From Silicimonas sp. (lineage in GTDB: Bacteria; Pseudomonadota; Alphaproteobacteria; Rhodobacterales; Rhodobacteraceae), in contig JABDJX010000103.1 of the NCBI GenBank assembly GCA_013003245.1, forward strand, positions 1-47,381: DNA of 47,381 nt, given 5' to 3'. Positions 8,361 to 38,033 of the stretch are shown here, piece after piece; positions within the stretch are counted from its first letter, which is position 1; the number at the start of each line of letters is the position of its first letter. Both the position numbers and the translations under genes were made by a program. Below the pieces are notes generated by a model. The model searched no databases. It was not told the origin of the DNA and saw nothing but the letters and a program-made list of their open reading frames with translations.

Positions 8361-8375
8361 AAAATTGATACACTA

Positions 8376-8389
8376 TTGATGCACATCAA
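8376..8389. promoter_or_regulatory. candidate operator: inverted repeat TTGATG-CA-CATCAA, preceded by direct ATTGAT repeats (8364-8369, 8375-8380)
   Basis: Read directly in the 78-bp divergent intergenic region between the GntR/HutC gene and the LLM monooxygenase gene. Confidence 0.35.
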
Positions 8390-8438
8390 AGACAATGCTA
8401 CGCAAGGTCAAAGTTCGTCCGCTGGGAAAGATTCGTTC

Positions 8439-10492: not shown

Positions 10493-10493
10493 G

Positions 10494-15726: not shown

Positions 15727-15736
15727 GAAGCCGCCC

Positions 15737-16270
15737 CTATTCTAAACTGTCGCTGCGGTCATCGACGCCCAGTAGCAAGCGGATCAAATGGCCAATGGAA
15801 AAAATCAGGATCAGGCCGCCGCCGATGGTCAATGGCAGCGAGCGCAGCCCTTCGGGTAGTTGAATAAGCGGGATCAGCGATCCCCATTTGAAAATGGTCA
15901 GCTTCGCGCCGTACCACAGCATCAACCCACCAAAGACCGCCATTGCCACATCGGTGACGAACACCAAGACCGTACGAATGCGCCGGTTCACGCCATTACG
16001 CAGGATCACCACAGACAGATGCGTGTTTTCGTGAACACCCACCGCAGCCCCCAGAAAAGCAATCACCATCACCAGCAGCAAGGCTGCCTGCTCGACCCAG
16101 GTCGGCGTCGCGTTCAGGACATAGCGGCCAAAAACCAGCCAGCCGAAAATCACCGTCATCACCACAAGGGCGATCCCGGTCACAACCCGGCACGCAAAAG
16201 CGATGCTATCAAGCGTCGCGTTCATACGTTGGACAGCTTGGGAAACGGGCGTGGCTTGAGGCATTGTCAT
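15737..16270 (-). CDS. dctQ: TRAP transporter small permease (DctQ family)
   Basis: 177-aa hydrophobic protein between dctP and dctM. Confidence 0.85.
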   Translation of the reverse strand: MTMPQATPVSQAVQRMNATLDSIAFACRVVTGIALVVMTVIFGWLVFGRYVLNATPTWVEQAALLLVMVIAFLGAAVGVHENTHLSVVILRNGVNRRIRTVLVFVTDVAMAVFGGLMLWYGAKLTIFKWGSLIPLIQLPEGLRSLPLTIGGGLILIFSIGHLIRLLLGVDDRSDSLE

Positions 16271-16282
16271 TCTCCGAACCTA

Positions 16283-16317
16283 AATCGCCCGGCTCTGCAG
16301 ATGGCTGAGCCGGGCGA
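16283..16317 (-). other. intercistronic stem-loop between dctP and dctQ
   Basis: ATCGCCCGGCTC (16283-16294) and GAGCCGGGCGAT (16306-16317) form a perfect 12-bp stem with an 11-nt loop. It lies 25 nt downstream of the dctP stop on the transcript and is followed by only a weak T tract. Confidence 0.5.
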
Positions 16318-16341
16318 TCTTAGCTTAAATCAAATCGCGCA

Positions 16342-17322
16342 TTAGTCAGTTGCTTGAATAAGCTCGACCAGTGGACGCAAAGCCGGATTGGTTTCAAAGT
16401 AGGCCTCATAAACCGGTGCCATTGCCGACTGGAACGGCGCTTTGTCTGCCACTTCGTTGACCACGACGCCTGCGTCTTCGACGGCCTTACGGCTTGTCGC
16501 CTCACGTGCTGTCCAAAGCTCACGTTGCAACAAAGCAGATTCCTGTGCGGCCTCGGTAACGGCGGCCTGCATCTCGGGCGACAGGGCATTGTAGGTGTCG
16601 GTGTTGATGCAGATACACTCTGGAATGATCAGGTGCTGAGACAGCGAATAGTATCCCGCTACCTCAAAGTGGCCAGTGGATTCATAAGATGGCCAGTTAT
16701 TCTCGGCTCCGTCCACAACTCCGGTTTTAAGCGCCTGATACACTTCTGCAAAAGCCATCGGTGACGGGTTGCCACCAAGTTCTGCAATCATGCCGGTGAA
16801 AAGATCGTTGTTCATGACGCGCACTTTCATGCCTTCCACATCGGCAGGCGTGTTGATCGCCTTATCGCCGTTATAAAAGGACCGCGCCCCCGCGTCGTAC
16901 CACGCCAAAGGATAAAGGCCTTTCGCCGCCATTCCTGCCGCAATCGCGGCACCGCCTTCGCCATCCAGGACGCGGAACATGTGAGGCACGTCCTTGAAGA
17001 TGAATGGCAAAGACACGACATTCGCTTCAGCAGCGATCGGACCGATGGGGCCAAGGTTAAAGTTGCCGATCTCCAAGCCGCCAAGACGCACTTGCTCTAC
17101 TGCGTCGGGCTGGCTGCCCAGCGTGCCGCCGTGAAACATCTGCAGTGTAATCTCACCACCGGTTTTTTCCGCCAGTAGTTCGGCGAATTTGTCCATGGCA
17201 ACAGTGTTTGGATACCCGTCAACGTGGATATTCCAGCCGCGCCAATCAGCGGCGGTCGCCGCGGTCCCCAGAATCGCCAACGCGGCAGCCCCGACGAGTG
17301 ATTTTGTGAATGTATGGAACAT
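16342..17322 (-). CDS. dctP: TRAP transporter substrate-binding protein (DctP family)
   Basis: 326 aa. Signal peptide MFHTFTKSLVGAAALAILGTAATAA. DctP-type core. Confidence 0.9.
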   Translation of the reverse strand: MFHTFTKSLVGAAALAILGTAATAADWRGWNIHVDGYPNTVAMDKFAELLAEKTGGEITLQMFHGGTLGSQPDAVEQVRLGGLEIGNFNLGPIGPIAAEANVVSLPFIFKDVPHMFRVLDGEGGAAIAAGMAAKGLYPLAWYDAGARSFYNGDKAINTPADVEGMKVRVMNNDLFTGMIAELGGNPSPMAFAEVYQALKTGVVDGAENNWPSYESTGHFEVAGYYSLSQHLIIPECICINTDTYNALSPEMQAAVTEAAQESALLQRELWTAREATSRKAVEDAGVVVNEVADKAPFQSAMAPVYEAYFETNPALRPLVELIQATD

Positions 17323-17522: not shown

Positions 17523-18215
17523 TCAAACGCCTTCAGGTTCAAAAAAATTTGCGTTGGTGACGGCAATTCTCTCGATTGTGTCGTCCAGCCGCGCAAGGTG
17601 CAGCCTGCCAACTTCAACCGCTTTTTTGGGATCATGATTGGTCACGGCTTGGGCAATTGCACGATGGTCCTCTAAAAGATCTGGCATGCGGTTTTCCTTG
17701 GACAGGCTCAGGACGCATAGTCGATCAACTTTCGATTTTTCCATCATGATCACATCAAAGGCAAAATCAGCCTGAGCGATCTGACACAGAGTTTCGTGGA
17801 AGTCATAGTCCAGCGCACCAAACGCCTCTACGTCCGCGTTCTTTATGGCCTGCTCCTGCGCCGCGAGGGCGGTCGTAAGCAAATCTGCGCCTTGGGTGTC
17901 ACAAAGATCGGCGGCCCGGCGCAATACTTCCATTTCGATCGCTGTGCGGACAAATCGTGCTTTCACAATCTGGCGCGTTGAGAACCGTTTCACGACCGTG
18001 GCCCGCTGGGGGCGGATCAGTAAAAGATCAAGATGCGACAAGCGACTAAAAGCATCGCGCACCGGTTGACGAGACACGCCAAATTGGGCCGCAACCTCGG
18101 CTTCTGAAATCTTATCTCCGGGCTTTAGGCGCAAAGAAAGTATGTCATCGCGCAAGTTATCAAAGATATCGTCAACGGTAGTCCGCCGCGCGCCAAGTTG
18201 CGTTGCCTGCGCCAT
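17523..18215 (-). CDS. GntR family transcriptional regulator, FadR subfamily (FCD effector domain)
   Basis: 230 aa. wHTH KISEAEVAAQFGVSRQPVRDAFSRLSHLDLLLIRPQRATVV, followed by an all-helical C-terminal domain with His residues typical of FCD. Confidence 0.85.
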   Translation of the reverse strand: MAQATQLGARRTTVDDIFDNLRDDILSLRLKPGDKISEAEVAAQFGVSRQPVRDAFSRLSHLDLLLIRPQRATVVKRFSTRQIVKARFVRTAIEMEVLRRAADLCDTQGADLLTTALAAQEQAIKNADVEAFGALDYDFHETLCQIAQADFAFDVIMMEKSKVDRLCVLSLSKENRMPDLLEDHRAIAQAVTNHDPKKAVEVGRLHLARLDDTIERIAVTNANFFEPEGV

Positions 18216-18452: not shown

Positions 18453-19196
18453 ATGAAACTTCAAGGGCAAACCGCCATCGTAACGGGCGCCGGTCGTGAC
18501 ATTGGGCTGGCGGCAGCACTCAAGTTGGCGTCCGAGGGGGCGAATGTTGCCATCAACTATTTTTCAAGCAGCGCTGGCGCAGATGAAGCCGTTTCGCAAA
18601 TAACCGCGCGGGGCGGGCGTGCAATCGCAATGCAGGGCGATTTGACCAAAAAGGACGACGTCGATGCACTGGTGTCCAAGACATTGACCGAATTTGGTGG
18701 CATCCACATTCTGGTCAACAATGCAGGCGGGCTGATCGCACGGGTCAAAGTCGCCGAGATGTCGGATGCGCATTGGCACGCTGTGATGGACCTGAACCTT
18801 ACCAGCACTTTTCTGATGATCAGGGCGTGTCTGGCCCACATGGAAACCGGCGCAATCGTCAATCTGGCAAGCCAGGCAGGCAGAGACGGAGGCGGGATGG
18901 GTGCAGTTGCCTATGCCACGTCAAAAGGGGCAGTCATGACCATGACGCGCGCCTTGGCCAAAGAGCTGGGTCCTGACATCCGTGTGAATGCCTTGTGTCC
19001 GGGAATGATCGACACGGATTTTCACAACATTCACACGCCTGATGCTGCACGGCGCGGGCTTGAGGCAACGGCACCGGCGCGGCGTCAGGGCACACCGGAA
19101 GATACCGCAAATCTGATCCTCTTTTTGGCAAGCGCCGACTCTGAATTCATCACCGGCACAAATATCGACATCAACGGCGGTATGCTTTTTTCGTAA
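18453..19196 (+). CDS. SDR family oxidoreductase (FabG-like)
   Basis: 247 aa: TGAGRDIG cofactor motif, NNAG, and the S...YxxxK triad region (YATSKGAV). Confidence 0.85.
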   Translation: MKLQGQTAIVTGAGRDIGLAAALKLASEGANVAINYFSSSAGADEAVSQITARGGRAIAMQGDLTKKDDVDALVSKTLTEFGGIHILVNNAGGLIARVKVAEMSDAHWHAVMDLNLTSTFLMIRACLAHMETGAIVNLASQAGRDGGGMGAVAYATSKGAVMTMTRALAKELGPDIRVNALCPGMIDTDFHNIHTPDAARRGLEATAPARRQGTPEDTANLILFLASADSEFITGTNIDINGGMLFS

Positions 19197-19227: not shown

Positions 19228-20202
19228 CTAGAGTGTCAAAATAGTCGATCCGGTGGTCTTGCGGCCCTCAAGCGCAGAGTGAGCTTTTGCAACGTCCTCA
19301 AGGCGGAACCGCTGTCCAATCGCAATTTCCAATGCCCCAGACGAGACCTTGTCAAACAAATGCTGCGCCATTTCCTGACATCTTGCATGATCGGCCAGAA
19401 ACGTGAAAAGCGTCGCGCGCGTGAGTTTCAGCGACCCCTTTCCTGCAAGCGTCAGAAGATCAACTGGTGGAACCGGACCAGACGCGTTGCCAAACGAGAT
19501 CATGAAACCGAGTGGTCTGAGACAATCGAGTGAGCCTGCAAATGTATCTTTGCCAACACCATCCATCACCACATTCACGCCCTTGCCGCCCGTCAGATCT
19601 TTGACCTTCTCGACAAAATCAACATCGCTGTAATTGATGCACTCGGTCGCGCCATGTGCCCGCGCCATTTCGCATTTTTCGTCAGAACCAGCCGTTCCAA
19701 TCAGATTGATCCCTTCTGATTTTGCCCACTGACATGCAATCAGCCCGACGCCCCCCGCAGCGGCGTGGAACAGCACCGTGTCGCCTTTGCCTATGGGCGT
19801 GATGCGATGGAACAGATATTCGACGGTCATGCCCTGCAACATCATGGCCGCAGCTGTCTCAAATGCGATGTCATCAGGCAATCGGCAGACTTGGGCGGCG
19901 GGCATGACGCGTTCTTCCGAATAGGCACCCGGCGGCGTGGCTGCATAGGCCACACGGTCTCCTTGGGCCAGATGGGTCACACCCTCCCCCACTGAAACAA
20001 CAACGCCCGAAGCCTCCATGCCAAGTGCATGTGGCAATTCTAACGGGTAGAGCCCCATTCTTTGATAGACATCGATAAAATTCAAACCGCAGGCGCGATG
20101 CTCAATTCGAACCTCACCATGTCCGGGTTCGCCAACAGGCCGATCAACGATTGTAAGCTGTTCAGCGCCTCCCGCAGCCTCGATAATAACTGTACGTGCC
20201 AT
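19228..20202 (-). CDS. qor: NADPH:quinone oxidoreductase (zeta-crystallin/MDR family)
   Basis: 324 aa. MDR fold without Zn-ligand cysteines. AAGGVGLIACQWAK nucleotide motif. Confidence 0.8.
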   Translation of the reverse strand: MARTVIIEAAGGAEQLTIVDRPVGEPGHGEVRIEHRACGLNFIDVYQRMGLYPLELPHALGMEASGVVVSVGEGVTHLAQGDRVAYAATPPGAYSEERVMPAAQVCRLPDDIAFETAAAMMLQGMTVEYLFHRITPIGKGDTVLFHAAAGGVGLIACQWAKSEGINLIGTAGSDEKCEMARAHGATECINYSDVDFVEKVKDLTGGKGVNVVMDGVGKDTFAGSLDCLRPLGFMISFGNASGPVPPVDLLTLAGKGSLKLTRATLFTFLADHARCQEMAQHLFDKVSSGALEIAIGQRFRLEDVAKAHSALEGRKTTGSTILTL

Positions 20203-20948: not shown

Positions 20949-22265
20949 CTAAATGCGCGCAAGCCATGTTGCAATGGACGGCACCATTATGATGATGATT
21001 AGCGCGACAATCATCGCGATGACGAACGGAAAGGCACCGCGAAAGATCATCCCGACCCGCAAATCGGGATCATCCATCGCTGACTTAATTGTGTAGACCG
21101 ACAAGCCAAAGGGCGGCGTCAGCAAGCCAATCTCGACCGCGACAACAGTCAGGACACCGAACCAGATCAAGTCAAATTCGGCTGCATTGGCGACCGGAAG
21201 TGCAATCGGCAACATGATCAGCATGATCGAGATTGAATCGATCAAACATCCCATGAGAATAATCAGCAACAAGTAGATGACCAGAAACCCATATGGGCCA
21301 ATCGGGCTGGACAAGAAGAACTCTGCCAATTCACGCGGAACCCCTGAAAGGGCCAGCATCCGGCTAAAAAACGTTGCGGCCATGATCAGCAACAGCACCG
21401 AAACGGTGATTTGACCCGTCTCGACAAGCAACTTCCAAAGTGTGGACCTGTCCAGCGATTTGCGCAGGATCGCGATCACCAATGCGCCAAAGGCACCTGC
21501 AGCACCTGCTTCTGTCGGGTTAAAAAAACCACCGTAAAGTCCACCAAGGACAAGGAGCATTAAGGATATGATTGGGATCGCCTTGCGCACGATAGCCCAC
21601 ATGGTCAGATCGTCATCAAATGCAACGGTGTCACCTGTTGCTTCGAACACGAAATCAGATCGCGTTTTTGCCAAAAGAACGATGGTGATCGTGAAAAGCA
21701 GCGATAACAGAAGGCCAGGACCAACCCCGGCAAGAAACATGCGACCCACTGATTCCTCGGCCAAGACAGCATAGACGATCATCAACAATGACGGCGGAAT
21801 GAGCATCCCCAAAACCGATGATCCTGCAACCACGCCTGTGGCAAATTTCTTCGTGTATCCGTGTCGCGTCATTTCAGGCACCGCGACGCGGCTGAACACC
21901 GTGGCAGAGGCAATGGATATACCCGTTATCGACGCAAAGACCGCATTGGCAAACACCGTGGCAATACCCAGACCTGCCGTCAGACGCTTCAACATACGCT
22001 CGAAAACGTCGAAGGTGTCCTTGCCGACGCCCGACAAAGCCACCAAAAGCCCCATAAGAACAAAAAGCGGAACAACCGCGAAAAGGTACTCCTGAAGCGA
22101 GTCATTGGCGACGGCCCCAATCATGCGCGTGGCCACGGCTTCGTTGCGGATCATGGCGACTCCGGCGAACGAGACCACAAGCATACTGATCGCAATCGGA
22201 AGCCCAATATAGATCAGAAAAATGAGCCCCCCGATCCCAAATATGCCAATCTCAAGCGGGCTCAT
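20949..22265 (-). CDS. dctM: TRAP transporter large permease (DctM family)
   Basis: 438 aa with DctM motifs (VVPLFVLMGLL, GFFNPTEAGAAG). 4-nt overlap with dctQ. Confidence 0.9.
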   Translation of the reverse strand: MSPLEIGIFGIGGLIFLIYIGLPIAISMLVVSFAGVAMIRNEAVATRMIGAVANDSLQEYLFAVVPLFVLMGLLVALSGVGKDTFDVFERMLKRLTAGLGIATVFANAVFASITGISIASATVFSRVAVPEMTRHGYTKKFATGVVAGSSVLGMLIPPSLLMIVYAVLAEESVGRMFLAGVGPGLLLSLLFTITIVLLAKTRSDFVFEATGDTVAFDDDLTMWAIVRKAIPIISLMLLVLGGLYGGFFNPTEAGAAGAFGALVIAILRKSLDRSTLWKLLVETGQITVSVLLLIMAATFFSRMLALSGVPRELAEFFLSSPIGPYGFLVIYLLLIILMGCLIDSISIMLIMLPIALPVANAAEFDLIWFGVLTVVAVEIGLLTPPFGLSVYTIKSAMDDPDLRVGMIFRGAFPFVIAMIVALIIIIMVPSIATWLARI

Positions 22266-22831
22266 GGTGTTTCGGTCTCGGTATTGTTGCCGCGCAAGAC
22301 TGCAATCGCGCGCACCACAAATTCAACCGCAGCGACGAAAACTCCAATCAGAATGAGCACCTGAAAGGGCCAGGTTTGCAGTGTAGCAATCCCGGGAACA
22401 CCAATGAATTCACCGGAGCCATAGTCCTTTTCAAGGATGCGCACGGTTGACCAGGCGATCAGCGCAATCATCCATGCGCCAACCAGATTGAAAAGCGCCT
22501 TCACAAGGCGTCCGATCATTGGAAACCGCCTTTGCAGTGGCGGCAAGAATATTTCAGTTTTTGCCAGGCGATCTGCGCGTATGGTCGCGGCCAATTGCAG
22601 ATACACGATGATAACCAGCATCAGGGCACCCAGTTCCGAAATCAGCGGAAGCGATGAGCCCAGCAAATTGCGAAAGACAATGTCGGCGCAGATGATCAGC
22701 ATCAAAACTCCGATCAAAACTGTGCCGATGGCGGCAAGTCCATCTACAAGCTTTGACCAAAAACGATCAAAGACGTCGAAGACGCGCCCAGCTTTCGACT
22801 GGGCGCGCTGGCTTTCATGCGAAGACTGCAC
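22262..22831 (-). CDS. dctQ: TRAP transporter small permease (DctQ family)
   Basis: 189 aa with four hydrophobic segments, between dctP and dctM. Confidence 0.8.
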   Translation of the reverse strand: MQSSHESQRAQSKAGRVFDVFDRFWSKLVDGLAAIGTVLIGVLMLIICADIVFRNLLGSSLPLISELGALMLVIIVYLQLAATIRADRLAKTEIFLPPLQRRFPMIGRLVKALFNLVGAWMIALIAWSTVRILEKDYGSGEFIGVPGIATLQTWPFQVLILIGVFVAAVEFVVRAIAVLRGNNTETETP

Positions 22832-22840
22832 CTCGCAGCC

Positions 22841-23914
22841 TTACTTGTCCCAATCGCGCGCCGGGGTCTCTCCACGGCTTCGCAAGGCTTCCATATATGC
22901 GGCGATGAATTCAGTGGCGGGGATGCCACGTGCGTCCAACGGTGCCGCCCAGTCGCCAGCAAGATCGGGCATCTTGTTGACCCATTTGACCAGCTCGCCC
23001 TCGGGCATTGGAACGATCGTTACAGGAGTATCCTGAGAGGCTCCAAGCTCTACCATTTTGTTGAGTGCAAACTCATGCCGCTCGACCAAGTCCTGACCAT
23101 GCGAAGTGGTATAATACTTGCCGGCCTCGACCATTGCGTTTTGAACCTCTTCGGGCAGACCTTCCCAACTGTCACGGTTGATGGCGACCGCACCCGAAAA
23201 GGCGCCACCCGCGTCGAAGCGGTTGATGTAAGGGGCGACCTCATAAAGCTTAATCGGCAGCGCGCCCAGCGCCAGTGTCAATGCGCCGTCAGACACGCCC
23301 GTCTGCACATCGGTGTAAAACGTAGTCAGCGCGCCGTCGACAGCATTGGCCCCCGTGCCGCGCAACCAGTTGCCCAGCACACCCGGCGCAGACAGTTTCA
23401 TACCTTCTATGTCGTCAACACCTGTGAGGGGTTCCTTGGTATACAGATCGTAAAGGTCGGTTCCCGTCAGCCCCAAAACCTTCAGATTGTGCTGTTCCCA
23501 CTCATCACGGAACGCATCGTTTGTTTCGATCAGTTCTTCCATAACCTCCAACTGAAGTGCAGGATTAGAAGTCGAGAACGGTGCGTTGGACGAGGCCTGG
23601 CTGAGAGGAAGCTTGGCAGCCTCCAAAAACGAGAATACCCAACCAATATCTGTAATGCCCTCTTCCACCGAACTTAGCGTAGCGTTTGCCTTGTAGAGCG
23701 TGCCTCCAAAGGCCTCGTTCCACTCAATCTGGTAGTTCCCGTTCTCGGCCAGGATCTCATCGGTGCGCGCCATGAAATGGGTCTTGATCATACCGACCCA
23801 AGGCACAACGGTCGGGTGGCTTGAGGCAACAGTCAGATTGATGGTCTCTTGTGACGATGCGGCCATTGGCATCACCATCGCCCCAGCGGCGATAAGCCCA
23901 AATAAAGTCTTCAT
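22841..23914 (-). CDS. dctP: TRAP transporter substrate-binding protein (DctP family)
   Basis: 357 aa. Signal peptide MKTLFGLIAAGAMVMPMAASSQ. Periplasmic binding-protein pattern. Confidence 0.85.
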   Translation of the reverse strand: MKTLFGLIAAGAMVMPMAASSQETINLTVASSHPTVVPWVGMIKTHFMARTDEILAENGNYQIEWNEAFGGTLYKANATLSSVEEGITDIGWVFSFLEAAKLPLSQASSNAPFSTSNPALQLEVMEELIETNDAFRDEWEQHNLKVLGLTGTDLYDLYTKEPLTGVDDIEGMKLSAPGVLGNWLRGTGANAVDGALTTFYTDVQTGVSDGALTLALGALPIKLYEVAPYINRFDAGGAFSGAVAINRDSWEGLPEEVQNAMVEAGKYYTTSHGQDLVERHEFALNKMVELGASQDTPVTIVPMPEGELVKWVNKMPDLAGDWAAPLDARGIPATEFIAAYMEALRSRGETPARDWDK

Positions 23915-23933
23915 CGGTTTCCTCCCTCGGTGT

Positions 23934-24338
23934 TCAAATCAGCGAAAATTTTTGGGTCGAGTAGTCAAGGCGCACAGTCACAGTGCCCTCGTTGATCAGC
24001 CATGGGCGTACATGGAAACTTCGCGCGCCTCGTGCATGCATGGGATCACTTTCTGCAATTGCGATGGCTTCGTCACGTGATGCGGCGCGGACAACAACCA
24101 TCCCCTCGCCCGCCCATTCCTGCTCGTCATCCGTCCACATGGGGCCAGCGGCAAACATGATGCCATCTTTTTCAAGCTGAACCTGAAACGCAAGGTGGTC
24201 TTCCAGATTCGCAAATACCGCCCCCATCCCGTCAGTTGGTTTGGTGAAGATCGCATAAAGTTGCTTTTGCAGCATCGCGCTACTTGCTTCCAACACTGCT
24301 CCTTTCGGAACTGCTTTCGGGTTATCGTTTTCACTCAT
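23934..24338 (-). CDS. YciI-like (dimeric alpha/beta barrel) protein
   Basis: 134 aa. The C-terminal part (MFAAGPMWTDD...MVVVRAASRDEAIAIAESDPMHARG...VRPW) has the YCII pattern. It carries an N-terminal extension of about 30 aa. Confidence 0.65.
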   Translation of the reverse strand: MSENDNPKAVPKGAVLEASSAMLQKQLYAIFTKPTDGMGAVFANLEDHLAFQVQLEKDGIMFAAGPMWTDDEQEWAGEGMVVVRAASRDEAIAIAESDPMHARGARSFHVRPWLINEGTVTVRLDYSTQKFSLI

Positions 24339-24365
24339 CTGCCACCCTCCCTGGATGCCTTTGGA

Positions 24366-25511
24366 TTAGCTTGCTTTTTGTAATGCCAATTCTGCCCGGA
24401 TTTCGTCGCCGTGTTCATCCAGTGTCGGCGGCGCTTGCACGTCTCGTTCAGACTTGCCATCGAAATTGTAGGGTGCACGCACTGTTGTAAACTGCCCCAT
24501 CTCCGGATGCTGTGACGTGACAGCGATTTGCAAATGCTTGGCTTGCGGGTCTTCCAGCGCTTCATCCGCGTCGTAAGCAGGCGAATGCGGCACTCCTGCA
24601 GCTTCCAAGCGGTCGCACCATGCCTCGCGTGTGTCGCCCAGGAAAACCGGCGTGAAGATATCGATCAGGTCGTCCTGATGCTTGATCCGCTCTAACCGTT
24701 CGGAAAACCGCACATCTTGGTTCAGGTCGGTCTGGCCGGTCGCTTCCAGGAACCCCTCCCAGAATTTCGTTGGCGACGACAGGTGGATCGCAATCCACTT
24801 TCCGTCGCTGCAGGCGAATGTATAGCTCTGCGACACGACTGGGCGCGACAAGGGGCCCATAATCTCGCCCACAGAATAGTGATGCGTGAAGCTATCAAGA
24901 TTAAAGTGGCTCATCGCTTCAAGCATTGAAATATCAAGACGATGCCCCTGCCCCGTTTTGCTGCGCTCCAACAGAGCAGCCATGATGCCCATCGCGGCAT
25001 ACTGTCCGGTAACCGCATCGGCGATTGCAGGACCAATCACGCGCGGGTTTGTCGGCGGGGTCAGCAACCGCAGATACCCGCTCGCGGCTTGCGCCACGGT
25101 GTCATAGGCGGGACGGTCGCGATAGGGTCCGCTTTGCCCGAACCCTGAAATCGCACAATAGATCAGCTTGGGATTAATCGCGCGCAAATCATCTTCGCCT
25201 GCTCCCAGTTTCTCGGCAACGCCGGGGCGAAAATTTTGAATAAACACATCGGCGCCAGCGACCAAATCATGCAACACCGCGCGATCGTTATCCTTCTTGG
25301 TATCCAAAGCAATAGACCGCTTGTTGCGATTATATGTCTGATAATGAGGCGAATAGAGCCCGCCTTTAAAAGCACGAAATGGATCGCCAGTTCCGGGACG
25401 CTCGACCTTGATCACATCGGCGCCAAGATCAGCCAAATGCATGCCAGCCGCTGGGCCTGTAATATACGTCCCTAGCTCTATTACTCTGATATCTTTTAGA
25501 ATCTTGACCAT
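24366..25511 (-). CDS. family III (CaiB/BaiF/Frc type) CoA-transferase
   Basis: 381 aa: IRVIELGTYITGPAAGMHLADLGADVIKVERPGTGDPFR and PAYDTVAQAASG, which contains the position of the catalytic Asp. Confidence 0.85.
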   Translation of the reverse strand: MVKILKDIRVIELGTYITGPAAGMHLADLGADVIKVERPGTGDPFRAFKGGLYSPHYQTYNRNKRSIALDTKKDNDRAVLHDLVAGADVFIQNFRPGVAEKLGAGEDDLRAINPKLIYCAISGFGQSGPYRDRPAYDTVAQAASGYLRLLTPPTNPRVIGPAIADAVTGQYAAMGIMAALLERSKTGQGHRLDISMLEAMSHFNLDSFTHHYSVGEIMGPLSRPVVSQSYTFACSDGKWIAIHLSSPTKFWEGFLEATGQTDLNQDVRFSERLERIKHQDDLIDIFTPVFLGDTREAWCDRLEAAGVPHSPAYDADEALEDPQAKHLQIAVTSQHPEMGQFTTVRAPYNFDGKSERDVQAPPTLDEHGDEIRAELALQKAS

Positions 25512-25540
25512 TGTGGCTCCTCTATTTCTTCAGCTGGGGC

Positions 25541-26338
25541 CTAATCACGCTTGGATGTTTTGCCGTCATACGAAATCGCAATGTCCGCTTTATGGGACAT
25601 GATAAACCCGATAGAGCGCATCGATTCTTCGTAAAGATGTGCCGCCAGACCAGCGGTGCGCGCCAGTAGAGGAACGGCTTTGAGGGCCTCAAGCGGCCAG
25701 CCGGCATCCAAAATGACGGCTGGGATAGCGCCAGAGACGTTTATGGGGAGCGGGCGATTGATAATCCCGGGCGCGTGCTTGGCCAAAGCGCGAAGCGTCT
25801 CGATATACGGTCCGCTGATGTCCAACTCGTCAGCGATTTCAAGAAGCTTATCGGCACGTGGGTCGCCGGCACTATGCTGCGGATGCCCAAGACCTGGCAC
25901 CTTTTCGCGGCGCTCTTTAAGACTATGCAAAGATGCGATTGCTGCGGTTTCGATGTCGGTTCCATCGGCCTCCGCTTTTGCCATGACTTCCGCCAGAAAC
26001 CTGCCCGCAGTTTCCGAGCTGCCTGCAACCACACTGCCCATTCCCAAAAGACCCGCCGCCATGGCGCCCTGCCATGCATCCGGTCCGGCTGCCAGTGTCA
26101 TGCGCGCGGCCTGAACGCTTGGCACCAAACCATGCTCTGCAATCGCGACTAGGCAGGCATCCAACATTTTGCGCTGTGCGGGGCTTGGGTGCTCGCCAAT
26201 GACCAGCAACCAGAAATAGTCGGTAAATGCGATTCCACCGATCAACTCGTCACAAAGATTGTGCCCGCGAACCGTTATGGAATCGGCATCCGACGTTGCG
26301 ATTGCAGTAAAGGCCTGGTCCTGTTTGCCAATCCGCAT
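25541..26338 (-). CDS. short citrate-synthase-fold protein (citryl-CoA lyase-like)
   Basis: Start moved to ATG 26338 (MRIGKQDQ), giving 265 aa. It aligns by eye to the C-terminal half of citrate synthase (IAEHG, PGLGHPQHSAGDPRA, ARTAGLAAHLYEE). Confidence 0.7.
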   Translation of the reverse strand: MRIGKQDQAFTAIATSDADSITVRGHNLCDELIGGIAFTDYFWLLVIGEHPSPAQRKMLDACLVAIAEHGLVPSVQAARMTLAAGPDAWQGAMAAGLLGMGSVVAGSSETAGRFLAEVMAKAEADGTDIETAAIASLHSLKERREKVPGLGHPQHSAGDPRADKLLEIADELDISGPYIETLRALAKHAPGIINRPLPINVSGAIPAVILDAGWPLEALKAVPLLARTAGLAAHLYEESMRSIGFIMSHKADIAISYDGKTSKRD

Positions 26339-26478
26339 ATCAATCCCCTTTTTCGCATACCGAAATACTTTTCTCTTGCCGAACGATATGACGCGGCGTA
26401 ACCTTCCGTCAAGTTGCATGTGCATCGCCGGGGCTTCCCAACCTGACCCCCGAAGCGAACAAGGGACAGTAGCTGCGA

Positions 26479-27312
26479 ATGGAAGCGTCAGTTATGAACT
26501 CAAATCCGGGCTTAAACGATGGCGACAGACCGGCAGAGTTTGTGGAGGCTTTGGCAAAAGGCCTTGGAATACTACAGTCGTTTGATGCCGCGAACCCTGA
26601 ACGCACACTCAGCGAAGTCGCCCGCGTTGTGGGTCTGTCTCCGGCTGCGGCAAGGCGCAGTCTGATTACGTTAACCGCGCTTGGCTATGTCGGGCAAAGA
26701 AACAAACGTTTTCACCTGCGCCCCAAAGTAATGACTCTGGGATCGGCGTTTTATTATTCTGCGCGTATAGACGAAGTGTTGCAGCCGTTCCTGCGCGACT
26801 TGGTCGACAAATTTGGCGACGCCTCGTCGGTGGGCACTTTGGATGGGCAGGACGTCATCTACATCGCCCACAGTTCTGTGCAACGCGCTCGGCGCGCCGC
26901 GGCAGTGGTTGGGGCGCGCTATCCGGCATACGCCACGTCTTTGGGGCGCGTACTGCTGGCTGGATTGAGCGAGGAAAGACTTGAAGCCTACTTTGATGGC
27001 TTTGAACCGGTTGCACTGACATCCAAAACACTGACCGACCCCAAGATCATCCGCACAGAAATTGCCGCCGTTCGTGATGCTGGGTATGCCACAACGGTTG
27101 ATCAACTTGACTATGGAATAACAGCCCTGGCCGTTCCAATCAGGGGGATCGATGGCAGAACGGTAGCTGCATTAAATACATCTGGCTACACCGGGATGGT
27201 TAATCCAGAAGAACTGATCGACGCAAGGCTGCCCGAGTTGCGCATAATTTCCTCGGGCATAAGCAATGCGTTAACCCGATTCCCGATGCTTGAATCGATC
27301 ATCGGACCATAA
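26479..27312 (+). CDS. IclR family transcriptional regulator (PcaR/PobR-like)
   Basis: 277 aa: FVEALAKGLGILQSF...LSEVARVVGLSPAAARRSLITLTALGYV, followed by an IclR effector domain. An alternative start is ATG 26494. Confidence 0.85.
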   Translation: MEASVMNSNPGLNDGDRPAEFVEALAKGLGILQSFDAANPERTLSEVARVVGLSPAAARRSLITLTALGYVGQRNKRFHLRPKVMTLGSAFYYSARIDEVLQPFLRDLVDKFGDASSVGTLDGQDVIYIAHSSVQRARRAAAVVGARYPAYATSLGRVLLAGLSEERLEAYFDGFEPVALTSKTLTDPKIIRTEIAAVRDAGYATTVDQLDYGITALAVPIRGIDGRTVAALNTSGYTGMVNPEELIDARLPELRIISSGISNALTRFPMLESIIGP

Positions 27313-27348: not shown

Positions 27349-28842
27349 ATGTGCAGACTGTGCGATCCGCAAAAGCCTCAAGTGCCCTGCCCGATAAACA
27401 TGAGTGCGCAGGCCGGCGCCGATGCCAAGACCTTGGCGCTGACCGGAACAGCAGAAGCTCAAAAGGCCGCCGCCGCAAGTCTGCCCAAGGGGCTGGGAAC
27501 GCCTGGTCGCCAAGTCCTGATCAAAGGCGGCGCTGTCTTGTCGATGGATGACAAAGTTGGGAATTTCGCGGTTGGCGATGTGCTGATTGATGGCGGCAAA
27601 ATCGCAGCGGTTGGCAGCGATATTGACGCGCCGGACGCCGAAGTGATCAATGCAGCGGGCAAGATTGTCATGCCGGGCTTTGTTGACACGCATCACCACC
27701 AGTTTGAGACCGCCCTGCGCAGTCAGTTGTCCAATGCAATTTTGATTAATGACGGTCGACCCTCCAGTGTCTCCAACTACTACGAGACGATGCTGCAAGG
27801 ATTCTCGATGGTGTATCGGCCTGAAGACGTTTACATCAATGAACTTTTCGGAGGCATCTCTCAGTTGGACGCAGGCGTGACAACAGTTATGGACGTCAGC
27901 CAAATCCACCACTCGCCAGAACATTCGGACGCGGCCATCGAAGGACTTCGCGACGCCGGACGGAGGGGCGTATTCGGCTATTTCGAAGGCTGGGGCGACC
28001 ACGCGAAATACCCTGCGGATGCGGCCCGAATCAAAGATCAATACTTCGCCTCGGATGATCAGCTGACAACTATGGTCATGGGCGGAGAGATTTATCTGCC
28101 CGGCTACGAGGAAGCCTGGAAAGTCGGGCGCGAACTGGGCCTGCCGATTGCCTTGCACGTCGTCGGCACCTTTGGCATGCAGGAAACCTTTGACCAGTTA
28201 GCCACATCGGGCATGTTCGGAGATGACAATATCTTTATCCACATGACCGGCATGTCGGAAGAGGCTTGGAAGCACGCCGCAGATGCAGGATCACACGTCT
28301 CGTTGTCAGTGCCGATCGAAATGCACATGCGCCACGGCACGCCACCCATCCAAAAGGCGCTTGATTTGGGCATGTCTACGTCGCTTTCAACAGACGTTGA
28401 GTGCACGATGACTGCCGATTTCTTCACCCAGATGCGTGCGATGGTCAGCCTGCAGCGCATGGTTGCAAATGAAAAGGCGCTTTCCGGCGAAGAATACCCC
28501 GAGTTGATGGAATGTATCCAAGCCATCGGCCACGCCACGATGGGTGGCGCCAAGGGTCTGCGGCTGGACCACAAGATTGGCTCACTCACCCCGGGAAAGG
28601 ACGCTGACATTATCTTGCTGGACGCCGAGGCAATGAACGTGGCACCGCTTAACAACGTGCCGGGCGCCGTTGTCACTTTGATGGAGCGGAGCAATGTCGA
28701 TACTGTCATGGTCGCAGGGGAGATCAAGAAATGGAAAGGTCAATTGCTTGGCTTTGACATTGCACGTTTGCGCAGCGAATTGGAAAACAGCCGCAACTTC
28801 ATATTTGAAGCCGCAAAAATCGATCGCGACCTGTTCGCCTGA
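27349..28842 (+). CDS. amidohydrolase superfamily metallo-hydrolase (Amidohydro_1 type), substrate unknown
   Basis: 497 aa. AGGAGGA Shine-Dalgarno 9 nt upstream. HxH motif in PGFVDTHHHQFE. Later HV/HM motifs and a C-terminal GSLTPGKDADIILLD motif. Confidence 0.8.
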   Translation: MCRLCDPQKPQVPCPINMSAQAGADAKTLALTGTAEAQKAAAASLPKGLGTPGRQVLIKGGAVLSMDDKVGNFAVGDVLIDGGKIAAVGSDIDAPDAEVINAAGKIVMPGFVDTHHHQFETALRSQLSNAILINDGRPSSVSNYYETMLQGFSMVYRPEDVYINELFGGISQLDAGVTTVMDVSQIHHSPEHSDAAIEGLRDAGRRGVFGYFEGWGDHAKYPADAARIKDQYFASDDQLTTMVMGGEIYLPGYEEAWKVGRELGLPIALHVVGTFGMQETFDQLATSGMFGDDNIFIHMTGMSEEAWKHAADAGSHVSLSVPIEMHMRHGTPPIQKALDLGMSTSLSTDVECTMTADFFTQMRAMVSLQRMVANEKALSGEEYPELMECIQAIGHATMGGAKGLRLDHKIGSLTPGKDADIILLDAEAMNVAPLNNVPGAVVTLMERSNVDTVMVAGEIKKWKGQLLGFDIARLRSELENSRNFIFEAAKIDRDLFA

Positions 28843-28866: not shown

Positions 28867-29727
28867 ATGGCCCAACTTGTTGCTACCCTCGCCTCAACCC
28901 ACCATCCATTCTACCTTAAGGCAACTACAATGCCGCCCGAGCAGCAGATGCCGCAAGCGCCGGAATGGAAACGCAAGATTGAGGCCTATCGCGAGACGCT
29001 GGAGCGGACCAAGCCGGATATCCTTGTAATGATCGGCTCGGACCACTTTCATCAGATATTTCTGGACAACTGCCCGCAATTTCTGATCGGTAAGGCTCCG
29101 CGGTATGATGCGACATTCTACAATGAAGAGCGTGAATTCGGGCTGCCCAAATATGTGCTTGAAGGTCACGAAGACATGTCAAACTTCATGCACCAGAATT
29201 TGCTGGATCAGGACTTTGACTTTGCCTTTTCCAACGAGTTGAAAATCGACCACTCGATCATTTGCCCGATTATAACAGTGCGTCCAGATAACGACCTACC
29301 GGTCGTGCCGATCTACACCAACATCTTCGCCCCGCCCCTGCCTTCGCCGCTTCGTTTTTACAATTTGGGTCGCGCAATCCGCAAAGCCATCGACGCATAT
29401 CCATCGGACAAGCGCATCGCCGCAATTGGCACCGGGCATTTGTCGCTTGAGCTTGGCGGACCGCGGCAATTCATGGAAACAGGGCCAGATCCCGAGTTCG
29501 ACCACCAAGCCATCGAATGGCTCCGTAACGGAGACATTGACGCCATTTTGGACAATGTCGATCACGACTCCATGGCCAAAAGCGGCAACGCAACACACGG
29601 CTTTTTGAACTTTATCCTGATGCTTGGCGTGGCAGGACCCGAGGGCGCTGACTACGTTGACAACCTTGATCTGTTCCACACCATGGAAGCCTATTTCACA
29701 TGGTACCCCAAGGAGGTAGCGGCATGA
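28867..29727 (+). CDS. class III (LigB-type) extradiol dioxygenase catalytic subunit
   Basis: 286 aa: ASTHHP..., MIGSDHFH, KIDHS, AIGTGHLS, which form the LigB-family His-rich pattern. Confidence 0.85.
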   Translation: MAQLVATLASTHHPFYLKATTMPPEQQMPQAPEWKRKIEAYRETLERTKPDILVMIGSDHFHQIFLDNCPQFLIGKAPRYDATFYNEEREFGLPKYVLEGHEDMSNFMHQNLLDQDFDFAFSNELKIDHSIICPIITVRPDNDLPVVPIYTNIFAPPLPSPLRFYNLGRAIRKAIDAYPSDKRIAAIGTGHLSLELGGPRQFMETGPDPEFDHQAIEWLRNGDIDAILDNVDHDSMAKSGNATHGFLNFILMLGVAGPEGADYVDNLDLFHTMEAYFTWYPKEVAA

Positions 29728-32061: not shown

Positions 32062-33456
32062 ATGACAAATCTTAGCACCGTTATGGCACAGCACAGCAAT
32101 CCGGTAGAGATGCTGCGCAACTCGAAAATTGGGATGTACGTCTATCCCGTTGTCACGCCAGAATTCAGTAACTGGCGGGATGAGCAGCGCGCGTGGCGCG
32201 AAACAGCGGTATTGTTCGACCAAACGCACCATATGGACGAATTGATCGTAGAAGGCCCGCAGGCGACCGAGTTTCTCTCGCATCACGGCATCAACTCGTT
32301 CGCGAATTTTGATCTTAACCGAGCAAAGCACTTTGTGCCGGTTACCCCAAACGGGCATGTCATAGGCGATCACATCATCTTTCGAGAGCGCGAGGATAAG
32401 TACATTCTGGTCGGGCGCGCACCAACCTCGAACTGGATGATGTTCTGTGCGGCACACGGAAACTGGAATGTGCGCCTGCGCTATGATCCGCGCTCGCCCA
32501 GCAGGCCCGAAGGTGAGCGCGTAATGCGTGAACACTATCGTTTTCAGATACAAGGCCCCGATGCGCCTGCGATTTTTGAAAAAATGAACGGTGGACCTGT
32601 TCCAGACATCAAGTTCTTCCACGTTGATCAGATAAATATCGGCTCCAAAAAGGTAACGGCGCTGCGCCATGGCATGTCCGGCGCGCCGGGCCTGGAAGTT
32701 TGGGGTCCGTATAAGGACAAGGACTATATACACTCTACCATCCTTCAGGCGGCGCGGGATGCAGGCGTTGATTTGGTACAGTGCGGCAGCCGTGCCTATT
32801 CGACCAACACGCTGGAATCCGGCTGGATACCGTCTCCCCTGCCGGGCATTTATACGGGCGACGGGATGCTTGCCGACTATCGCGATTGGTTAGGCGCTGA
32901 CATGTACGAGGCCGCAGGCGCGATTGGTGGATCGTTTGTGTCGGACAATATCGAAGACTACTACGTCAACCCCTTTGAGTTGGGCTACGACTTTTACATC
33001 GGCTGGAAGAAAGACGATTTCGTCGGCAAAGCTGCACTTGAAAAGATGAAGGGCGGCACAAACCGGAAAAAGGTTACATTTGAGTGGAACCGCGAGGACG
33101 TCTTGAAAGTCATCGCATCATCATTCGAGCAAGGCACGCCTTACAAATGGATCGACTTCCCCCAGCCAAACTATGCATCTTCGTCGGCAGATATGGTGAT
33201 GCGTGACGATAAAATGGTTGGGATGAGCATGTTCAACGGATACAGCTTTAACGAACGCTGTGTTCTTAGCCTTGGCGTGGTGGCTCAGGGCGTGCAAGTT
33301 GGCGATATTCTCAGCCTTAAATGGGGCGAACCGGAACGCACCGGCAAAACCTCTACAGAGGCTCATAAACAGACGGACATCCGCGTCCGCGTGGCCGAAA
33401 CACCTTATGCGAAGGACGCACGCGAAAACTATGCAGACAGCTGGCGGACAAGGTAA
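32062..33456 (+). CDS. tetrahydrofolate-dependent aromatic O-demethylase, LigM/DesA family (GcvT fold)
   Basis: 464 aa with long colinear matches to Sphingobium SYK-6 LigM as I recall it: VEMLRNSKIGMYVYPVVTPEFSNWRDEQRAWRETAVLFDQTHHM, GSRAYSTNTLESGWIPSPLPGIYTGD, AGAIGGSFVSDNIEDYYVNPFELGY. Confidence 0.85.
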   Translation: MTNLSTVMAQHSNPVEMLRNSKIGMYVYPVVTPEFSNWRDEQRAWRETAVLFDQTHHMDELIVEGPQATEFLSHHGINSFANFDLNRAKHFVPVTPNGHVIGDHIIFREREDKYILVGRAPTSNWMMFCAAHGNWNVRLRYDPRSPSRPEGERVMREHYRFQIQGPDAPAIFEKMNGGPVPDIKFFHVDQINIGSKKVTALRHGMSGAPGLEVWGPYKDKDYIHSTILQAARDAGVDLVQCGSRAYSTNTLESGWIPSPLPGIYTGDGMLADYRDWLGADMYEAAGAIGGSFVSDNIEDYYVNPFELGYDFYIGWKKDDFVGKAALEKMKGGTNRKKVTFEWNREDVLKVIASSFEQGTPYKWIDFPQPNYASSSADMVMRDDKMVGMSMFNGYSFNERCVLSLGVVAQGVQVGDILSLKWGEPERTGKTSTEAHKQTDIRVRVAETPYAKDARENYADSWRTR

Positions 33457-33538
33457 ACACCGTCAATAACATAGGGCGGGCGATCCGACAGGCGCCGCGC
33501 CTAACAACCAAAAGTGTCGATTACTGGGAGGAAAAGAC

Positions 33539-34519: not shown

Positions 34520-34525
34520 GCCAAC

Positions 34526-36339: not shown

Positions 36340-36350
36340 GAGATCTGTCC

Positions 36351-38023: not shown

Positions 38024-38033
38024 GGAGACGAAC

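Follow-up and report, generated by a model that had tools for sequence, protein, structure and literature searches.

A citrate-synthase-fold/CoA-transferase module of uncharacterised function in a variant of the aromatic ring-cleavage gene clusters of Proteobacteria

What does a protein with a short citrate-synthase fold do when its gene is paired with that of a family III coenzyme A (CoA) transferase and followed by the genes of a tripartite ATP-independent periplasmic (TRAP) transporter? This question is raised by a 47,381-nt stretch of DNA from Silicimonas sp. (Rhodobacteraceae; contig JABDJX010000103.1 of assembly GCA_013003245.1), referred to as a whole as the window, in which six minus-strand genes encode a citrate-synthase-fold (CS-fold) protein, a CaiB/Frc-type CoA-transferase, a YciI-family protein and the TRAP subunits DctP, DctQ and DctM, divergently from an IclR-family regulator (Table 1). 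A previous reading of the same DNA, made without database searches (the sequence-only reading), had taken the six genes for an operon dedicated to the ATP-independent import and cleavage of citrate or an analogue. Its gene models hold, in that all open reading frames (ORFs) were found at the same positions, with gaps of 29, 27, 19 and 9 nt from the CS-fold gene to dctQ and a 4-nt overlap between dctQ and dctM, and the Pfam scores of all six operon proteins and of the regulator exceed the gathering scores. The comparison presented here leads to another view of their function: two divergent operons under IclR control appear to encode a single pathway, and the six genes make up one of the two. 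The pathway is a variant of aromatic ring cleavage that includes an uncharacterised CS-fold/CoA-transferase module, and a widespread misannotation is attached to it. A literature search found no publication describing this gene cluster, in agreement with the sequence-only reading, which knew no characterised pathway of such composition.

Extent and conservation of the gene cluster

The cluster was delineated from 80 loci of Rhodobacterales and Hyphomicrobiales/Rhizobiales, one genome per species, in which gene presence around each CS-fold gene was scored by tblastn with the proteins of the window; a greedy clustering of the ORFs of these loci had also yielded antisense artefact families (clusters 10, 11, 13, 14, 16 and 20), which were discarded after tblastn. 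The CoA-transferase gene lies directly downstream of the CS-fold gene in 77 of the 80 loci, the IclR gene is present in equally many and the YciI gene in 55, which bears out the conservation of this neighbourhood that the sequence-only reading had put forward for checking. Genes for DctP, DctQ and DctM follow downstream of the CoA-transferase and YciI genes (67, 67 and 66 loci, respectively), a homologue of the amidohydrolase of the window was found in 59, and a flavin reductase gene of the FMN_red family stands directly after dctM in 56. The neighbours keep fixed distances and the same strand relative to the CS-fold gene, an arrangement far beyond chance. Identity of the CS-fold protein is 72-87 % in the 80 loci and 72-89 % across genera; that of the cluster is 70-95 % among Roseobacter-group bacteria and Rhizobiales, and its core occurs in Burkholderiales and Gammaproteobacteria as well.

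A LigB-type dioxygenase, 85-96 % identical to that of the window, is encoded in 38 loci and a small LigA-like ORF in 39, while an intradiol dioxygenase, encoded between the IclR and CS-fold genes, is found in 37; LigB-type and intradiol enzymes never occur together and jointly cover 75 of the 80 loci. Because a dioxygenase of either type is this constant, the functional unit is about twice the six-gene extent and represents an aromatic ring-cleavage cluster. Besides the dioxygenase, its additional members are an amidohydrolase and a quinone-type reductase, frequently joined by a core-MetE-like protein. The notion of a stand-alone six-gene operon was therefore too narrow, and a link to ring fission, previously regarded as conceivable, proved central.

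The window carries the LigAB version. Its large subunit has the gallate dioxygenase DesB (3wku) as best PDB match (E 1e-20) and scores below every NCBIfam cutoff for gallate or protocatechuate dioxygenases, for example 104.8 vs 412 for gallate dioxygenase; the small subunit begins at an ATG at 29724 behind an AAGGAGG site, overlaps the LigB stop by 4 nt, and has a counterpart in 36 of the 36 LigB-carrying loci with enough DNA. The intradiol enzyme is closer to hydroxyquinol 1,2-dioxygenases (E 2e-62 to 4e-53) than to catechol 1,2-dioxygenases (about 1e-37); the window encodes none, and it was found in the 37 sister loci and in the two Burkholderiales loci examined. With its two-subunit LigAB-type dioxygenase, closest to DesB, the window resembles the systems for gallate, 3-O-methylgallate and protocatechuate 4,5-cleavage (LigAB, DesB, DesZ, GalA), but its lower genes encode the CS-fold protein and the CoA-transferase rather than a hydratase and an aldolase (LigI/J/K, GalB/C/D). 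Hydroxyquinol clusters comprise hydroxyquinol 1,2-dioxygenase, maleylacetate reductase and quinone reductase, and the tft cluster also the YCII-family dehydrochlorinase TftG. The sister loci share with them a hydroxyquinol-1,2-dioxygenase-type enzyme, an NADPH-dependent FMN/quinone reductase and a YCII protein with a His/Asp dyad; they differ in that the CS-fold and CoA-transferase genes adjoin the dioxygenase gene and that maleylacetate reductase is missing, and the window differs further by its LigAB-type enzyme. No maleylacetate reductase (Fe-ADH) was present in the Pfam-annotated contexts, nor did any other family recur across the 80 loci.

The core-MetE-like gene co-varies with the intradiol dioxygenase, being present in 21 of 30 intradiol-type vs 2 of 35 LigAB-type loci. 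The protein of the window has its best PDB match in 3rpd (E 3.4e-57), carries His-x-Cys and Asp-Cys-Gly motifs, and has orthologues of 62-66 % identity in the Ramlibacter, Woeseiaceae and L091 clusters. As a single-domain Meth_synt_2 protein it is similar to the core-MetE, or folate-independent, methionine synthases, from which it is set apart by its place in a catabolic cluster. We also noted that the core-MetE-like protein (L081 17084-18118; L085 2885-3919; L091 2446-3483) is conserved across Alpha-, Beta- and Gammaproteobacteria, where it outconserves the CS-fold protein of the same clusters (62-66 % vs 40-51 %), and that L085 has a second, divergent copy (25 % identical). A 2025 paper reports that the core-MetE homologues of aerobic marine bacteria retain the zinc-site residues and that the one in Phaeobacter inhibens fails to sustain methionine prototrophy (PMC12478193), a result that fits a catabolic role of the paralogue in the window.

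The amidohydrolase, encoded in 33 of 36 LigAB-type and 26 of 31 intradiol-type loci and absent in Burkholderiales, matches the NCBIfam model PRK08204 'hypothetical protein' (414 bits vs cutoff 391) and has an 8-oxoguanine deaminase/AtzB entry and AtzA as its nearest PDB relatives. In the window (27349-27510) and in Marivita (L022 8184-8030, minus strand) it shares an N-terminal extension of about 50 residues upstream of the usual start, which begins MCRLC and contains further Cys residues. An FMN_red gene was found in 30 of 32 intradiol-type vs 22 of 33 LigAB-type loci, lying directly behind the CoA-transferase gene in 7 alphaproteobacterial loci as well as in Burkholderiales. A homologue of FMN_red is missing from the window, where dctM is followed downstream by genes for a vicinal oxygen chelate (VOC) protein and for a quinone reductase of the medium-chain dehydrogenase/reductase (MDR) type. 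The latter has a homologue near the cluster in 3 other loci and may replace FMN_red as a putative member of the unit. The VOC protein, too, may belong to the unit: homologues of 75-78 % identity lie near the cluster in 4 intradiol-type loci, and VOC genes are present in the Woeseiaceae and L091 clusters. A gene of the fumarylacetoacetate-hydrolase family is confined to intradiol-type loci (11 of 30 vs 0 of 31 LigAB-type). In Breoghania sp. L-A4 an RraA/LigK-like gene (L082 5165-5875), too divergent for a tblastn match to the LigK of the window, adjoins the gene for the LigA-like subunit and could be a lineage-specific addition of an aldolase.

The YciI protein carries the YCII domain and the His/Asp dyad of the family: His48 and Asp98 show no variation among 55 orthologues and are matched by a His and an Asp of HI0828. 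It was not recognisable as an orthologue of TftG; the only entry found by the PDB profile search was HI0828 (E 0.0017), and none for TftG came up. It occurs in 34 of 36 LigAB-type vs 19 of 35 intradiol-type loci. The transporter is a complete TRAP system of DctP, DctQ and DctM (TIGR00786 dctM, 320 vs cutoff 268), and the best solved relative of DctP (E 2.4e-13) is uninformative about its ligand.

More distant clusters allow the core to be separated from its accessories. In Ramlibacter and Caenimonas (Burkholderiales), where the CS-fold branch is 51 % identical to the protein of the window, a LysR gene diverges from overlapping genes for intradiol dioxygenase, CS-fold protein, CoA-transferase, FMN_red, an ATP-binding cassette (ABC) system with Peripla_BP_6 and a MetE-like protein, in that order; the MetE-like protein and CoA-transferase are 64 % and 61 % identical to those of the window. 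Here the ABC system replaces TRAP, and YciI and amidohydrolase are missing. YciI and TRAP, formerly viewed as integral parts of the operon, are thus dispensable accessories, neither of which occurs in Burkholderiales. In Woeseiaceae-type clusters the CS-fold and IclR genes face an operon of TonB receptor, VOC protein, flavodoxin/FMN_red, PaaK-type CoA ligase and MetE-like protein, and one such cluster has a GCV_T protein 45 % identical to the LigM of the window. The locus L089 has the order nitroreductase, CS-fold, YCII, DctP, DctQM and IclR, its CS-fold and YciI proteins being 60 % and 57 % identical to those of the window. Across these clusters the recurrent partners of the CS-fold protein are a CoA-activating enzyme, a quinone-type flavin reductase, the MetE-like barrel, VOC or ring-cleavage dioxygenases and IclR.

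The active site of the citrate-synthase-fold protein

By similarity the CS-fold protein would be taken for a citryl-CoA lyase. It matches the NCBIfam model NF004868 ('citryl-CoA lyase' subfamily) at 306.9 bits vs a cutoff of 193; to the remaining operon proteins and the regulator NCBIfam assigned no specific equivalog. Its best PDB match is the citryl-CoA lyase of Hydrogenobacter thermophilus (6hxp; E 3.6e-28, residues 21-247), with which, as with the C-terminal module of ATP-citrate lyase, it shares the length, the oxaloacetate-site residues and the short citrate-synthase fold (Pfam Citrate_synt, an unambiguous assignment at sequence level). Acetyl-CoA is enolised in citrate synthase and ATP-citrate lyase by His274 and Asp375 (pig citrate synthase numbering, used throughout), His274, which lies in a GPLHGGA or GSAHGGA motif, stabilising the enolate and Asp375 acting as general base/acid on the methyl group. 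Citryl-CoA lyase has both residues. In the protein of the window, aligned by phmmer to 6hxp and to citrate synthase 2c6x and additionally by MAFFT, the His274 position is occupied by Val104 (GSVVAGS vs GSAHGGA in the lyase; identical outcome by phmmer and MAFFT) and the Asp375 position by Ser202 (NVSG vs NVDG). The NVSG motif is present in 80 of 80 orthologues and the Val is likewise invariant.

The equivalents of the oxaloacetate-site residues are retained: His69 (His238, carried by the 'AEHG' motif), His152 (His320), Arg161 (Arg329) and Arg227 (Arg401) are invariant in the 80 orthologues and conserved in 74-81 of 82 diverse representatives, and the invariant Arg241 probably matches Arg421. 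Polar residues around the former active site are strongly conserved as well. The CS-fold protein thus seems to have kept an oxaloacetate site and to have no Claisen machinery, and because both acetyl-CoA-enolising residues are absent, it is predicted not to be a canonical citryl-CoA lyase; judged from these residues, it probably performs another reaction. Canonical cleavage of citryl-CoA or of an analogue, the retro-Claisen role assigned to the protein by the sequence-only reading, would not be expected.

These substitutions reach well beyond the cluster. One search scored more than 5,700 matches and an exhaustive one gave 2,900 representative clusters, among which 82 full-length close ones were compared. 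Asp occupies the 375 position in only 12 of the 82 and both His274 and Asp375 are present in about 5; the remaining relatives have Phe, Val, Leu, Ile or Tyr at the 274 position and Thr, Ala or Ser at the 375 position. Most of the short CS-fold representatives labelled 'citryl-CoA lyase' or 'citrate synthase' (P0121-P0270) are without His274 and/or Asp375, and the name 'citryl-CoA lyase' is likely to be wrong for a very large protein family.

The genomic setting likewise departs from that of citryl-CoA lyase, whose partner is an ATP-dependent citryl-CoA synthetase and whose context is the reductive tricarboxylic acid (TCA) cycle; the partner here is a family III CoA-transferase, and the context is aromatic catabolism in heterotrophs. 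No gene for a (succinyl-CoA-synthetase-like) citryl-CoA synthetase was found in the annotated contexts or among the recurrent families. It may be asked whether the original model, i.e. TRAP import of citrate or another hydroxy-tricarboxylate, CoA transfer and retro-Claisen cleavage in the manner of CitDEF and independent of aromatics, could nevertheless be true. The match to the H. thermophilus lyase, the retained oxaloacetate site, the conserved pairing of CS-fold protein and transferase, and the resemblance of the transferase to succinate-hydroxymethylglutarate CoA-transferase are all in line with it, yet the Val and Ser of all 80 orthologues, the rarity of the full dyad among relatives, the association of the pair with a ring-cleavage dioxygenase, which holds for 75 of 80 loci and for Burkholderiales, the replacement of TRAP by an ABC system or a TonB receptor, and the fact that neither a citryl-CoA synthetase nor an aconitase or other citrate-related gene recurs make it very improbable. 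A citrate or tricarboxylate lyase was rejected as main model on the basis of the active-site residues.

A second alternative is that the CS-fold protein is not a C-C catalyst at all, but serves the CoA-transferase as a subunit for ligand binding or specificity, or else is a tautomerase or decarboxylase of a free oxaloacetate-like acid, in which case the transferase would use the compound so formed (malonate, oxalate or acetoacetate, for example). The loss of the acetyl-CoA-enolising residues alongside an intact oxaloacetate site would be accommodated by this explanation, as would the similarity of the transferase to oxalate and formyl-CoA transferases. The same holds for CS-fold genes in other surroundings: some have no CoA-activating neighbour, and some genes of the type with Ser at the 375 position (Ser-type) adjoin an oxaloacetate-decarboxylase- or pyruvate-carboxylase-type carboxyltransferase. 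However, the conservation of the protein is very strong (72-89 % across genera) and includes the polar residues at the old active site, its gene adjoins that of the transferase in 77 of 80 loci and overlaps in Burkholderiales, and the library representative P0227 is an apparent fusion of a Ser-type CS-fold domain with an AMP-forming acyl-CoA synthetase; we consider the explanation improbable. Other Ser-type genes adjoin an oxygenase of the RPE65/lignostilbene-dioxygenase type. In L086 (7512-15585) and L084 (7369-9798) a Ser-type gene lies beside an HMGL-like/PYC_OADA carboxyltransferase, in L086 together with DctPQM, a short-chain dehydrogenase/reductase (SDR), biotin carrier, biotin carboxylase and, nearby, a dienelactone hydrolase, which looks like another uncharacterised module built on the same CS-fold type.

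A possible route for ring-fission products

We regard it as likely, with good confidence, that the cluster encodes an orphan catabolic route for a (methoxy)polyphenol of the hydroxyquinol, pyrogallol or gallate type or for a quinone. The reading that we prefer goes further: in an orphan route for a polyhydroxylated or methoxylated aromatic, the oxo-dicarboxylate formed by ring fission would be processed by the CoA-transferase and the CS-fold protein. To this reading as a whole, which rests on sequence comparison, we assign a probability of roughly 0.45; the assignment of the two enzymes to the ring-fission oxo-dicarboxylate within such a route is in itself tentative, and we place it somewhat below even odds.

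Several observations point to the ring-fission diacid as the substrate of the pair. The two genes occupy the place usually taken by maleylacetate reductase, and neither such a reductase nor any further gene of a lower pathway recurs; the CS-fold protein retains a site for a 2-oxo-dicarboxylate; and an apparent fusion of dienelactone hydrolase with a CS-fold domain exists (P0219). Furthermore, the transferase looks dicarboxylate-specific. It is a full-length enzyme (CoA_transf_3 profile positions 1-365 of 366) whose closest solved relatives act on dicarboxylates (SUGCT 9br6, E 9.5e-55; formyl-CoA transferase; YfdE), with NCBIfam matches to succinate-glutarate, succinyl-CoA:mesaconate and oxalate/formyl-CoA models, all below cutoff, whereas benzylsuccinate CoA-transferase, an aromatic-acid enzyme, is matched more weakly (E 4e-34). 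In family III CoA-transferases a catalytic Asp (Asp169 of Frc) forms the acyl-anhydride intermediate, and Asp165 in the 'PA.AD..TG' motif of the transferase, a candidate for this residue, is invariant in 78 orthologues. The enzyme belongs to the same family as the succinyl-CoA:mesaconate and succinyl-CoA:citramalate CoA-transferases, and thioester formation without ATP followed by conversion of the acyl thioester is what CitDEF and the pairs of itaconate or citramalate CoA-transferase and CitE/HpcH-type lyase also achieve. Unlike the CitE/HpcH-fold partner, the partner in the window has the citrate-synthase fold, is devoid of Claisen-type residues and is tied to ring cleavage.

In the preferred reading the aromatic compound would be imported, trimmed and held in the reduced state, with part of its processing taking place on the quinone, and its ring opened by the dioxygenase to an oxo-dicarboxylate. 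A family III transferase of the succinyl-CoA type would then convert this ring-fission product to its CoA thioester, and the CS-fold protein may bind the oxo-diacid end through its retained oxaloacetate site and deliver central metabolites by hydrolysis or lysis of a C-C bond (with a pyruvate-type enolate leaving), by decarboxylation or by isomerisation. Such a route would replace the maleylacetate reductase, 3-oxoadipate CoA-transferase and thiolase of the known hydroxyquinol routes. As LigAB substitutes for the pair of intradiol enzyme and MetE-like protein, the ring substrate is probably a methoxy-catechol or a vicinal triol. The extradiol enzymes DesZ and DesB cleave beside the methoxy- or hydroxy-bearing carbon of 3-O-methylgallate or gallate; cleavage by the intradiol enzyme would require a triol without the methyl group, and either way the same diacid with a 2-oxo-acid end would result. 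As examples we considered the conversion of 2,6-dimethoxybenzoquinone via methoxy-hydroxyquinol to 1,2,3,5-tetrahydroxybenzene, the hydrolysis of maleylacetyl-CoA, and the CoA-dependent cleavage of 4-carboxy-4-hydroxy-2-oxoadipate.

A number of points weigh against this proposal. The operon of L089 has no CoA-transferase, and several distant Ser-type CS-fold genes have no CoA-activating neighbour at all, so that the CS-fold protein may act on a free acid. PaaK-type ligases usually act on aromatic acids, and the presence of one in the Woeseiaceae-type clusters speaks for activation with CoA ahead of ring cleavage. Carboxylates are the usual cargo of TRAP systems, yet ring substrates of the hydroxyquinol type have no carboxylate; a decarboxylase was not identified in the cluster. 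Given the missing His274 and Asp375, any reaction that expels the enolate of acetyl-CoA would have to proceed without the usual catalysts. The combined role of LigAB, doing the job of both the intradiol enzyme and the MetE-like protein, is deduced from co-occurrence, and the parts played by the amidohydrolase and YciI in the pathway are guesses.

Some of these difficulties would disappear if a side chain were removed first. In such a scheme the imported compound would be an aromatic acid whose hydroquinone-type ring bears a short carboxylated side chain. Once it had been converted to its CoA ester, the chain would be split off by the CS-fold protein, assisted by the tautomerase-like YciI protein, to leave a (hydroxy)quinone, and the flavin reductase would produce the triol for the dioxygenase. 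An acid substrate would suit the TRAP importer, and two types of dioxygenase are easier to accept if the CS-fold/CoA-transferase step is upstream of them. The gene order is compatible too, with FMN_red right behind the CoA-transferase in Burkholderiales and 7 alphaproteobacterial loci, a PaaK-type aryl-acid ligase in the place of the transferase in two gammaproteobacterial clusters, and a minimal module of nitroreductase, CS-fold protein, YCII, TRAP and IclR that has no adjoining dioxygenase. Nonetheless, the Arg and His residues kept in the oxaloacetate site point to a dicarboxylate, and not to a ring, as ligand, the transferase is nearer to aliphatic dicarboxylate enzymes (E 1e-54) than to the benzylsuccinate enzyme, the enolate-stabilising His274 and Asp375 are absent, the apparent fusion P0219 hints at ring-fission products, and no candidate natural substrate is known. 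On balance we find this scheme unlikely.

The preferred reading can also be extended to an unrecognised lower pathway for hydroxyquinol or pyrogallol, based on new chemistry of a dyad-less CS-fold enzyme and preceded by the amidohydrolase and by the core-MetE-like protein as O-demethylase. Methoxy- or amino-(hydro)quinones derived from lignin or algae would be trimmed upstream, with the deaminase-type amidohydrolase acting on the quinone; the CS-fold step might yield pyruvate and malonyl-CoA, or acetyl-CoA and a C4 diacid, and would bypass maleylacetate reductase and the beta-ketoadipate thiolase. This extension is speculative and we would at present doubt it. The proposal of citrate-type import and cleavage without ATP is unlikely in view of both the active site and the ring-cleavage context.

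Regulation, surroundings and implications

The divergent regulator had been described as PcaR-like. Its assignment to the IclR family stands (HTH_IclR and IclR_C domains of Pfam), but it scores 242.8 bits against TIGR02431 (PcaR/PcaU/PobR), under the subfamily cutoff of 284.75. Alignment of the intergenic regions of the window and 36 LigAB-type loci revealed a conserved block upstream of the CS-fold gene, in which a consensus scan located a sigma-70-like site with a -35 element TTGACG at 26412-26407 and a -10-like element ending at 26383; the block further contains the conserved GTTCGGCAAGAG at 26373-26384 and a palindrome TTTCG-N5-CGAAA at 26351-26365. Judged by its conservation, the block would contain the promoter of the CS-fold operon together with a candidate operator for IclR. 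A repeat search of the divergent promoter region at default stringency gave nothing. An alternative upstream start would be available to the CS-fold ORF (ATG 26425, 294 aa); the start at 26338 (MRIGKQ), preceded by GGGGA, is kept in all 80 homologues and lies downstream of the promoter-like block.

Table 1. Coordinates of the genes and sites of the cluster and of the neighbouring gallate genes in the window
Feature	Position	Strand	Basis
NADPH:quinone-reductase-type MDR protein	19228-20202	minus	NCBIfam NF008024, 354.7 bits vs cutoff 348
VOC (glyoxalase/dioxygenase-fold) protein, 208 aa	20292-20918	plus	Pfam Glyoxalase
DctM (TRAP membrane subunit), 438 aa	20949-22265	minus	Pfam DctM, 277.6 bits
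DctQ (TRAP membrane subunit), 189 aa	22262-22831	minus	Pfam DctQ, 44.5 bits
DctP (TRAP periplasmic), 357 aa	22841-23914	minus	Pfam DctP, 92.6 bits
YciI-family protein, 134 aa	23934-24338	minus	Pfam YCII, 46.1 bits vs cutoff 24
Family III (CaiB/Frc-type) CoA-transferase, 381 aa	24366-25511	minus	Pfam CoA_transf_3, 365.4 bits
CS-fold protein, 265 aa	25541-26338	minus	Pfam Citrate_synt, 82.9 bits, E 3e-23
Conserved block upstream of CS-fold start	26351-26412	minus	Cross-species alignment of intergenic regions
IclR-family regulator	26479-27312	plus, divergent from CS-fold operon	HTH_IclR and IclR_C domains
Amidohydro_1 metal hydrolase, deaminase/chlorohydrolase type, 497 aa	27349-28842	plus	Pfam Amidohydro_1
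LigB-type (class III extradiol) dioxygenase, large subunit	28867-29727	plus	Pfam LigB, 99 bits
Small LigA-like subunit, 121 aa	29724-30089	plus	Weak Pfam LigA match, E 0.0016
Core-MetE-like zinc (beta/alpha)8 protein, 340 aa	30137-31159	plus	Pfam Meth_synt_2, 143 bits
Classical gallate/3-O-methylgallate lower-pathway cluster	32062-39753		Separate; 2-10 kb from studied cluster
LigM-type O-demethylase	32062-33456		627 bits vs cutoff 580
TRAP system of gallate cluster	33539-36339		
LmbE/GalB-like protein (hydratase)	36255-37085		
Catechol-2,3-dioxygenase-like VOC enzyme (extradiol)	36860-38023		
LigK CHA (4-carboxy-4-hydroxy-2-oxoadipate) aldolase	38034-38705		
4-oxalomesaconate tautomerase (GalD)	38530-39753		

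The classical gallate/3-O-methylgallate genes to the right of the cluster form a separate unit, and their adjacency is a feature of this window only: in 75 other loci there was not one case of a LigK, GalD or GalB-like gene linked to the cluster, and a link to them was rejected. Elsewhere in the window are two further TRAP-linked clusters. The first has a luciferase-like monooxygenase (7980-9596), an aldo/keto reductase (9476-10492), a flavin reductase (10317-10997) and the transporter genes dctQ (11061-11654), dctM (11661-13154) and dctP (13182-14246); the second, on the opposite strand, has DctM, DctQ and DctP (14443-17322), a GntR regulator (17523-18215) and an SDR protein (18453-19196). 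Glycogen synthesis genes unrelated to the cluster under study (starch/glycogen synthase, 1560-2984; branching enzyme, 4263-6440) flank a nucleotidyl transferase with a GlmU-like C-terminal domain (2981-4255), probably a glucose-1-phosphate adenylyltransferase. An integrase-domain protein is encoded near the right end (45151-46329), and there are no tRNA genes within the window, so that no island boundary is definable.

Thousands of proteins bear the name 'citryl-CoA lyase' or 'citrate synthase', and for most of those closest to the CS-fold protein the label is probably wrong, with a risk of mispredicted pathways and of false calls of the reductive TCA cycle from marker genes. Given its conservation in Roseobacter-group bacteria and Rhizobiales (70-95 %), with the core reaching into Burkholderiales and Gammaproteobacteria, the cluster probably serves to degrade a natural aromatic compound that is common in soil and seawater and is connected with lignin, tannins or quinones. 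If the extended reading were true, it would describe a lower pathway widespread in marine and soil Proteobacteria and would explain what the enigmatic core-MetE homologues found in aerobic marine bacteria do. Solving the cluster would add a missing branch of aromatic carbon turnover and a new activity of the citrate-synthase fold, and it would provide a testable role for these core-MetE homologues, whose function has recently been called questionable (PMC12478193).

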